Shown one piece after another: positions 33,837 through 34,407 of a stretch of 39,242 nt of DNA (position 1 is the stretch's first letter; each line of letters starts with the position of its first letter). The position numbers were made by a program, and so were the translations under genes. The DNA lies in the IMG/VR virus record IMGVR_UViG_2734482547_000015; one strand, given 5' to 3'. The DNA is from a virus (Duplodnaviria; Heunggongvirae; Uroviricota; Caudoviricetes). The notes beneath the pieces were generated by a model. The model was not told the origin of the DNA, did no database searches, and was given only the letters and a program-made list of their open reading frames with translations.

Positions 33837-34130
33837 TTATTGCAATGTATCTGGTGCGTTCTGCAAGGAGCGGCGCTCAATGCTGCTTTTCACCCCCAGA
33901 GCCTGCATGGAACCCTGAAGTTCATCTGTCAGAAACTGAATAATTGTGGGGCTGTGATATTTAAGAATTTGCGCATAAACATCACATGGGCCTGTCGGTC
34001 TGTTCTCCGTATCACGTTCGATTTTTACAGTGGCAGTAACCCCCTCCGTGATTTCCTGACTATCATTACCGGCTGGCTTTACTTCATGCATTACGTGGTT
34101 AAATTCAAAAATAACGCGTACTTTGCTCAT
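33837..34130 (-). CDS. Hypothetical small protein, N-terminally paralogous to the gene immediately upstream
   Basis: MSKVRVIFEFNHVMHEV versus MSKVVHIIFEYKEHVIH; GGGGG Shine-Dalgarno. Confidence 0.5.
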   Translation of the reverse strand: MSKVRVIFEFNHVMHEVKPAGNDSQEITEGVTATVKIERDTENRPTGPCDVYAQILKYHSPTIIQFLTDELQGSMQALGVKSSIERRSLQNAPDTLQ

Positions 34131-34407
34131 GGAATTCCCCCTGCTGATTAAATTCATTACCGTTAATAACCCCGGAAGCCATGCCCCTGTCTTTCATGAA
34201 TGCACTGGCTTTCATTGCCACAAGCTCTGCGAAGTTTCTGCTTTCCGCGAGCATAACCACCCCAAAAATCATGGCGGGTCCATCACCTTTCTGCTTTATC
34301 CCGGTTGAACGTATGTCCAGACTTACCCCCATGCGCACTGTTCCATCAGCGTTTTTATGGATAACGTGCTCCTTATATTCGAAAATAATGTGTACGACTT
34401 TACTCAT
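34105..34407 (-). CDS. Hypothetical small protein (100 aa), tandem paralogue of 33837..34130
   Basis: Shared N-terminal 15-17 aa; ATGA overlap with upstream gene; 3' end overlaps the paralogue start. Confidence 0.5.
   Translation of the reverse strand: MSKVVHIIFEYKEHVIHKNADGTVRMGVSLDIRSTGIKQKGDGPAMIFGVVMLAESRNFAELVAMKASAFMKDRGMASGVINGNEFNQQGEFHEQSTRYF

Follow-up and report, generated by a model that had tools for sequence, protein, structure and literature searches.

Two adjacent early genes of a Mu-like E. coli prophage are probable paralogues within a small gp7/E6-like family

The window analysed here, a stretch of 39,242 nucleotides, carries a Mu-like E. coli prophage whose early operon lies on the minus strand. 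Read along that strand, the genes run MuB-w75-Kil-w93-A-B-Gam, which places two small open reading frames, ORF A and ORF B, between MuB and Gam. The accessory early region is bounded on the left by the MuB transposition ATPase (35178–36110, minus strand; PF09077, PF13401), followed by the 75-aa gene w75 (34954–35181, minus; phrog_3375), Kil (34687–34941, minus; phrog_2679) and the 93-aa gene w93 (34404–34685, minus; phrog_1518), the upstream neighbour of A; Gam (33295–33825, minus; PF07352) lies downstream of B. An earlier note on this DNA had described two adjacent reading frames at the site, and both are confirmed: A (34105–34407, minus) encodes 100 aa and B (33837–34130, minus) encodes 97 aa counted from MSKVRV, and RefSeq PGAP annotation calls both as CDS in an E. 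coli prophage of 98.7% identity. The 2-kb stretch with A and B is carried by 232 of 5,426 complete E. coli genomes (~4%). The Stx2c- and Stx1a-converting phage genomes LC727881.1 and LC727895.1 are also annotated with this Mu-like element, A and B included, as an insertion: a lambdoid prophage into which a Mu-like phage has transposed.

Each gene matches one PHROG family over its full length. A aligns to phrog_4107 with residues 1–90 on profile positions 1–90 of 90 (E=1.2e-58), leaving the final 10 residues of the window protein uncovered, and B aligns to phrog_2230 with residues 3–97 on profile positions 1–88 of 89 (E=4e-37). The start of A overlaps the stop of w93 by 4 nt (ATGA), and a Shine-Dalgarno-like sequence read from the DNA, GAGGACCAGAGG (34408–34419, minus), stands directly 5' of its start codon; another, GGGGGAA (34135–34141, minus), has its 3' end 4 nt 5' of the B start. 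A longer version of B starting at 34157 (MNLISRGNS...) was rejected, as it has no Shine-Dalgarno site, PGAP places the start at 34130, and the conserved N-terminus runs from MSKV. An antisense 110-aa reading frame spanning nearly all of B (33819–34151, plus strand) was likewise taken as spurious; no promoter-like site was found on either strand between 33200 and 35300.

Scanning the minus strand over this same 33200–35300 interval also yielded no terminator-like site, and no Rfam family matched anywhere in the window. Because the minus strand has no internal promoter or terminator here, and because each of the two genes has a Shine-Dalgarno-like site and stands close to, or is coupled with, its neighbours, both A and B would be produced from the long early transcript. 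In position, in early-operon strand and in having no promoter of their own, they look like members of the semi-essential region. In Mu, this early segment is described only as 'semi-essential' genes, largely of unknown function (PMC3820752; PMC4553209), and those that have been named (kil, gam, sot, arm and cim, together with gemA/B) are small, dispensable and variable among Mu-like phages (PMC4553209; PMC3820752). A and B lie in the same segment and would share this general character.

The first frame had been reported to overlap the start of the second. It does so in the window, by 26 nt, but the overlap is not a feature of the family. A GAA codon at 34135–34137 (minus) stands in place of the TAA stop found in relatives, and this single TAA-to-GAA substitution adds 10 codons to A (EFHEQSTRYF) and shifts its stop to a TGA at 34105–34107. 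Most homologues of A are 90 aa long and end in ...NQQG; in 37 of 38 related IMG/VR contigs that include the junction, a 90-aa A ends in TAA and leaves a 4-nt gap before B, the usual arrangement being TAA, then TTCC, then ATG (an O157 prophage is one example). The GAA variant is present in the window and its closest relatives. As 37 of the 38 contigs have TAA where the window has GAA, the overlap is derived and lineage-specific, a recent stop-codon loss with no evident function.

Pairwise Nei-Gojobori estimates of dN/dS are 0.30 for A and 0.35 for B, against 0.06–0.10 for MuB, 0.09 for Kil and 0.08 for Gam, and mean dN is 0.064 for A, 0.150 for B and 0.016 for gam. These values show that A and B are coding genes under purifying but relaxed selection. 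Amino-acid divergence across the stretch is highest in B, with A comparable to w75, and no dN/dS above 1 was seen. The 180-aa gene downstream of gam (32655–33197, minus; phrog_2260, no Pfam match) has a dN/dS of 0.35, near the values of A and B and unlike that of gam.

The divergence of B has a particular form. Prophages with at least 90% identity elsewhere carry two allele classes of the gene that are ~60% identical. Compared with class-2 prophages, the DNA of the window is 98% identical up to 34101 and then 62–74% identical down to ~33851, with 84–100% identity in the flanks (86–100% at gam). The exchanged segment comprises the body of B, approximately codons 12–95 (33851–34100, minus, with boundaries resolved to 50-nt bins only), and the recombination breakpoint falls right after codon 11, at the end of the conserved 5' block. 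Between classes this cassette has a dS of 1.06, a dN of 0.31 and a dN/dS of ~0.3; over the first 11 codons dS is 0. The comparison shows that the B body circulates as at least two old allelic cassettes that are swapped by recombination. With boundaries this sharp and a dS this old, the variability of B is therefore a matter of cassette exchange and not of demonstrable positive selection. The earlier description of the genes as rapidly evolving accordingly stands insofar as A and B are the most variable genes here; for B, however, the variation comes mainly from the exchange of old cassettes, with no dN/dS above 1.

Both proteins open with the pattern MSKV..(I/V)IFE(Y/F)..HV.H. Their N-termini had been called near-identical, which overstates a resemblance that is nonetheless above chance: MSKVVHIIFEYKEHVIH and MSKVRVIFEFNHVMHEV agree at only 10 of 16 aligned positions, with two 1-residue gaps, and BLASTP returns no alignment between A and B. 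By pairwise and by profile alignment alike, the N-terminal similarity is significant (Smith-Waterman z~7; hhalign E of 1e-5 to 1e-6). The Smith-Waterman score of A against B is 54 (z=7.1–7.5), a value matched by 1–2 of 5,000–10,000 shuffles. When the two families were compared with hhalign, the probability rose from 68% to 80% to 90% as the B profile deepened, and E fell from 5e-5 to 1.4e-5 to 1.6e-6 on adding distant B relatives and the gp7 family, with ~79 co-linear columns throughout. Set against 200 column-shuffled B profiles, the observed score for A has a z of 8.9 and was reached by none of them. Among 38,880 PHROGs, phrog_2230 was matched by 5 of 23 members of the A family (best E=0.0065); the window proteins themselves gave no cross-match between phrog_4107 and phrog_2230 at E<=0.1.

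Most of this signal lies in the first 17–18 residues. The N-terminus alone gives z=4.5–7.9, and with the N-terminus removed the Smith-Waterman comparison of A and B is marginal (z=2.4). One explanation is that only the 5' end, about 17 codons and the start region, is common to the two genes, copied or converted between sequences that are otherwise unrelated. On this view one of the two, A or B, would be an unrelated gene that took over the N-terminus of the other. The B breakpoint right after codon 11 and the placement of A and B in separate PHROGs families would both fit such an origin. We consider it unlikely. The 5' ends do contain a 23-nt direct repeat, 83% identical, with one copy in codons 5–12 of A (34373–34395) and the other in codons 4–11 of B (34099–34121); yet 4 of the 9 degenerate codons common to the two 5' blocks differ synonymously, so conservation of the block is at the protein level and no recent copying is involved, which speaks against recent conversion.

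The remainders of the proteins also carry similarity, which argues against a shared 5' end only. Profiles stripped of their first 17–18 residues stay co-linear over 57 columns (score 17.2, z=3.0, 1 of 200 shuffles), and A without its N-terminus matches a distant B relative, P0083 (z=5.05, 2 of 5,000 shuffles), where GVSLDIRSTGI..GP in A aligns with GISVRVRSQGL..GP. The climb of the hhalign score with a deeper B profile points the same way, as does the predicted hairpin-then-helix order common to the N-terminal ~75 residues of the two models, to which the A model adds low-confidence strands. The earlier statement that the proteins diverge completely after the N-terminus is thus contradicted by a weak co-linear similarity over ~80 residues and by the resemblance of A to P0083. 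We read the relation between A and B as one of probable full-length homology, in which divergence would have been either very old or fast.

Relatives of B extend to Mu itself. When phage genomes were searched with B by tblastn, Escherichia virus Mu_3F6 gave a weak match over the full length, to the gene that occupies the place of gp7 in Mu. The product of this gene (VUD37869.1, 89 aa, starting MAKVIFEF...) is a clear homologue of B, with 31% identity over residues 5–85 (Smith-Waterman z=12.5, and z=9.9 without the N-terminus), and is in turn homologous to Mu gp7/E6 (z=4.95). Mu gp7 matches phrog_2230 over its full length (E=0.009), and the B profile aligns to the gp7 family plus the Mu_3F6 protein with 77% probability (E=2e-5). 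Direct Smith-Waterman comparison to Mu gp7 is not significant for either protein (A, z=1.0; B, z=0.01), hhalign finds nothing significant between A and the Mu gp7 family taken by itself (E=0.29 and 0.013), and A has no significant similarity to the Mu_3F6 protein (z=-0.45). On these comparisons B is homologous to Mu gp7/E6 by way of Mu_3F6, at the transitive or profile level, a relation shown for B and not for A alone. All 10 members of the B-family alignment, which comprises B and its close homologues, four distant relatives and the Mu_3F6 protein, match phrog_2230, and the same N-terminal motif recurs in Mu gp7, in Mu_3F6 and in the P0083–87 relatives.

Mu gp7 (Mup07, formerly E6; 87 aa; phrog_10252) is, like A and B, a small early-operon protein encoded between kil and gam, and it begins MAKVIIEIK, the same N-terminal strand motif. 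The Mu_3F6 protein shares with B both its PHROG (phrog_2230) and its early-operon context. The arrangements differ in copy number and in what separates the gene from gam: Mu has the single copy gp7, with gp8 and gp9 before gam, and Mu_3F6 also has a single copy, with gp8-/gp9-like genes between its gp7-position gene and gam, whereas the window has both A and B, and B adjoins gam. An exhaustive HMM search with the B profile against 1.84 billion representatives returned 14 proteins, four of them true distant relatives of 97–98 aa; the family is therefore small and confined to Mu-like prophages of Enterobacteriaceae. Four other matches were dismissed as long, repetitive, eukaryote-like proteins that owe their scores to numerous repeats.

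Loci from ~40 related IMG/VR contigs keep the gene order MuB-w75-Kil-(w93)-A-B-Gam, nearly always with A and B as a pair. Beyond this E. coli group, other Escherichia and Citrobacter prophages carry a single B-like gene. The four distant relatives (P0083, P0084, P0086 and P0087) and the one in Citrobacter braakii ATCC 51113, the single species-representative genome found in a search with a 4-sequence B-family alignment, are single-copy genes encoding 97–98 aa, 25–35% identical to B; their prophages are without A, and some have a DUF3164 protein instead of Gam. In each of these contexts the B-like gene lies directly upstream of gam or the DUF3164 gene and follows kil or a w93-like gene; where the latter is present, the junction is the same ATGA.

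Since relatives have a single B-like gene at the same position, B, just upstream of gam, is the ancestral gene and A the extra copy. A is, as far as these comparisons indicate, a strongly diverged copy of the gp7/E6-like gene found only in one E. coli prophage lineage; it would have retained the ATGA junction of the ancestor together with the conserved N-terminal strand, with strong divergence in the rest of the gene. The distribution of copies supports the earlier proposal of local duplication followed by divergence. Alternatively, other lineages may have lost an old paralogue that survives here as A, or recombination between two phages may have brought in A, a very divergent allele, in tandem.

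An otherwise intact-looking 36.5-kb contig (IMGVR_UViG_2654587996_000001, 2902–3294) lacks A and w93 and has B directly after Kil, and the sequence 5' of B is there of the type usually found 5' of A; either a deletion ran through the repeated 5' block here, or the contig preserves a single-copy ancestral state. Its lack of A is indirect evidence that A may be dispensable. A locus that appeared to hold a 47%-identical A (L083) was set aside as a decaying prophage with frameshifts. In this prophage copy (L083/L042, IMGVR_UViG_2617271340_000001), w93, A, B and Gam are frameshifted or truncated.

The regular pairing could also mean that A and B form a two-component module, a basic/acidic heterodimer or a toxin/antidote-like pair, with selection keeping the two together. 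Their co-occurrence in almost all related contigs, the usual spacing of 4 nt and their opposite charges (A is basic, pI 9.2; B is acidic, pI 5.5) are in keeping with a module, but we regard this reading as quite improbable: lone B-like genes occur in several prophage lineages and in the contig that lacks A, and the B allele classes have been swapped while A stayed unchanged, a poor fit to tight co-adaptation. A toxin-antitoxin or defence module was also rejected as a candidate function, with no match in PADLOC, Pfam or NCBIfam and with B present without A in several lineages. Protein starts of the form MSK... are common. That the N-terminal resemblance reflects chance, or a compositional or translation-initiation bias in unrelated genes, would agree with the empty BLASTP and window-level PHROG comparisons but is very hard to credit beside the rarity of shuffles that match the Smith-Waterman score, the column shuffles that never reach the profile score, the A-family members that match the B-family profile out of all PHROGs, and the recurrence of the motif in Mu gp7, Mu_3F6 and P0083–87. 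On balance, we find it likely that A and B are paralogues of a Mu-specific family of ~90–97 aa, with B as the ancestral member and an accessory role in the early phase.

Database searches assigned no function, fold or known family to these proteins. A and B have no match in Pfam, NCBIfam or PADLOC, sequence and profile searches of the PDB gave chance-level hits only (E>0.5), and neither protein shows sequence similarity to Kil, Gam or GemA. The AF2 models are of low confidence (pLDDT 55 for A and 59 for B). For A they place strands at residues 2–18 and 24–40 and a helix at 57–73, plus low-confidence strands at 46–50, 79–86 and 92–99; for B, strands at 4–20 and 24–39 and helices at 48–55 and 61–77. 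The similar order of elements over the first ~75 residues suggests that the two may share a fold, which these models would draw as a long N-terminal beta-hairpin followed by helices. Foldseek searches of BFVD returned no match at E<=0.001, and all TM-scores were below 0.45; the nuclease-like top matches for A were dismissed on that score and on the low confidence of the model. A ribbon-helix-helix DNA-binding assignment was also rejected, as the models, themselves of low confidence, predict a long two-stranded hairpin (~35 residues) followed by helices, and there is no Pfam RHH match.

The literature likewise gave no function for Mu gp7/E6, and none of the named semi-essential functions of Mu has been mapped to gp7/E6, A or B. 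The host-interaction role suggested in the earlier note thus drew no support from the family, fold or literature searches. We infer that A and B are putative non-essential accessory proteins of early lytic growth that most likely bind a host or phage protein. The conserved hairpin may serve as a core for structure or oligomerisation, and specificity may be set by the hairpin tip and the C-terminal part, both of them variable. It is possible, if rather unlikely, that the gp7/E6-like family forms a counter-defence or host-takeover set built on the N-terminal hairpin, in which cassettes exchanged between prophages just after codon 11 would retarget the protein to different host factors and A would widen the range of targets or pair with B as a basic/acidic heterodimer.

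Several neighbours of A and B are themselves optional. The upstream gene w93 carries the PHROGs label 'host nuclease inhibitor' and has no Pfam match; many prophages that are near-identical in other respects lack it through a clean indel of ~250 bp, and in Citrobacter and other prophages a homologue of it lies directly before the lone B-like gene. At the exact position of Gam, after a B-like gene, some loci have a 212-aa DUF3164 (PF11363) protein (L085, 4303–4941; L090, L091 and L092, ~3297–3935 / 3803–4441), which suggests that this protein functionally replaces Gam. In two further loci (L037 and L062, ~2476–2996) Kil and w93 are both absent and the order is MuB-w75-A-B-Gam; with Kil missing there, the septation inhibitor too counts as dispensable or optional within this group.

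The A/B pair represents a real but ordinary case of phage early genes, presumably dispensable, that duplicate and exchange alleles, and not a new kind of biology. Its relationships would unite three PHROG families of unknown function (4107, 2230 and 10252) into one Mu-specific superfamily. The value of the pair is modest: it offers a small, tidy system for studying the little-explored semi-essential early genes of Mu-like prophages.
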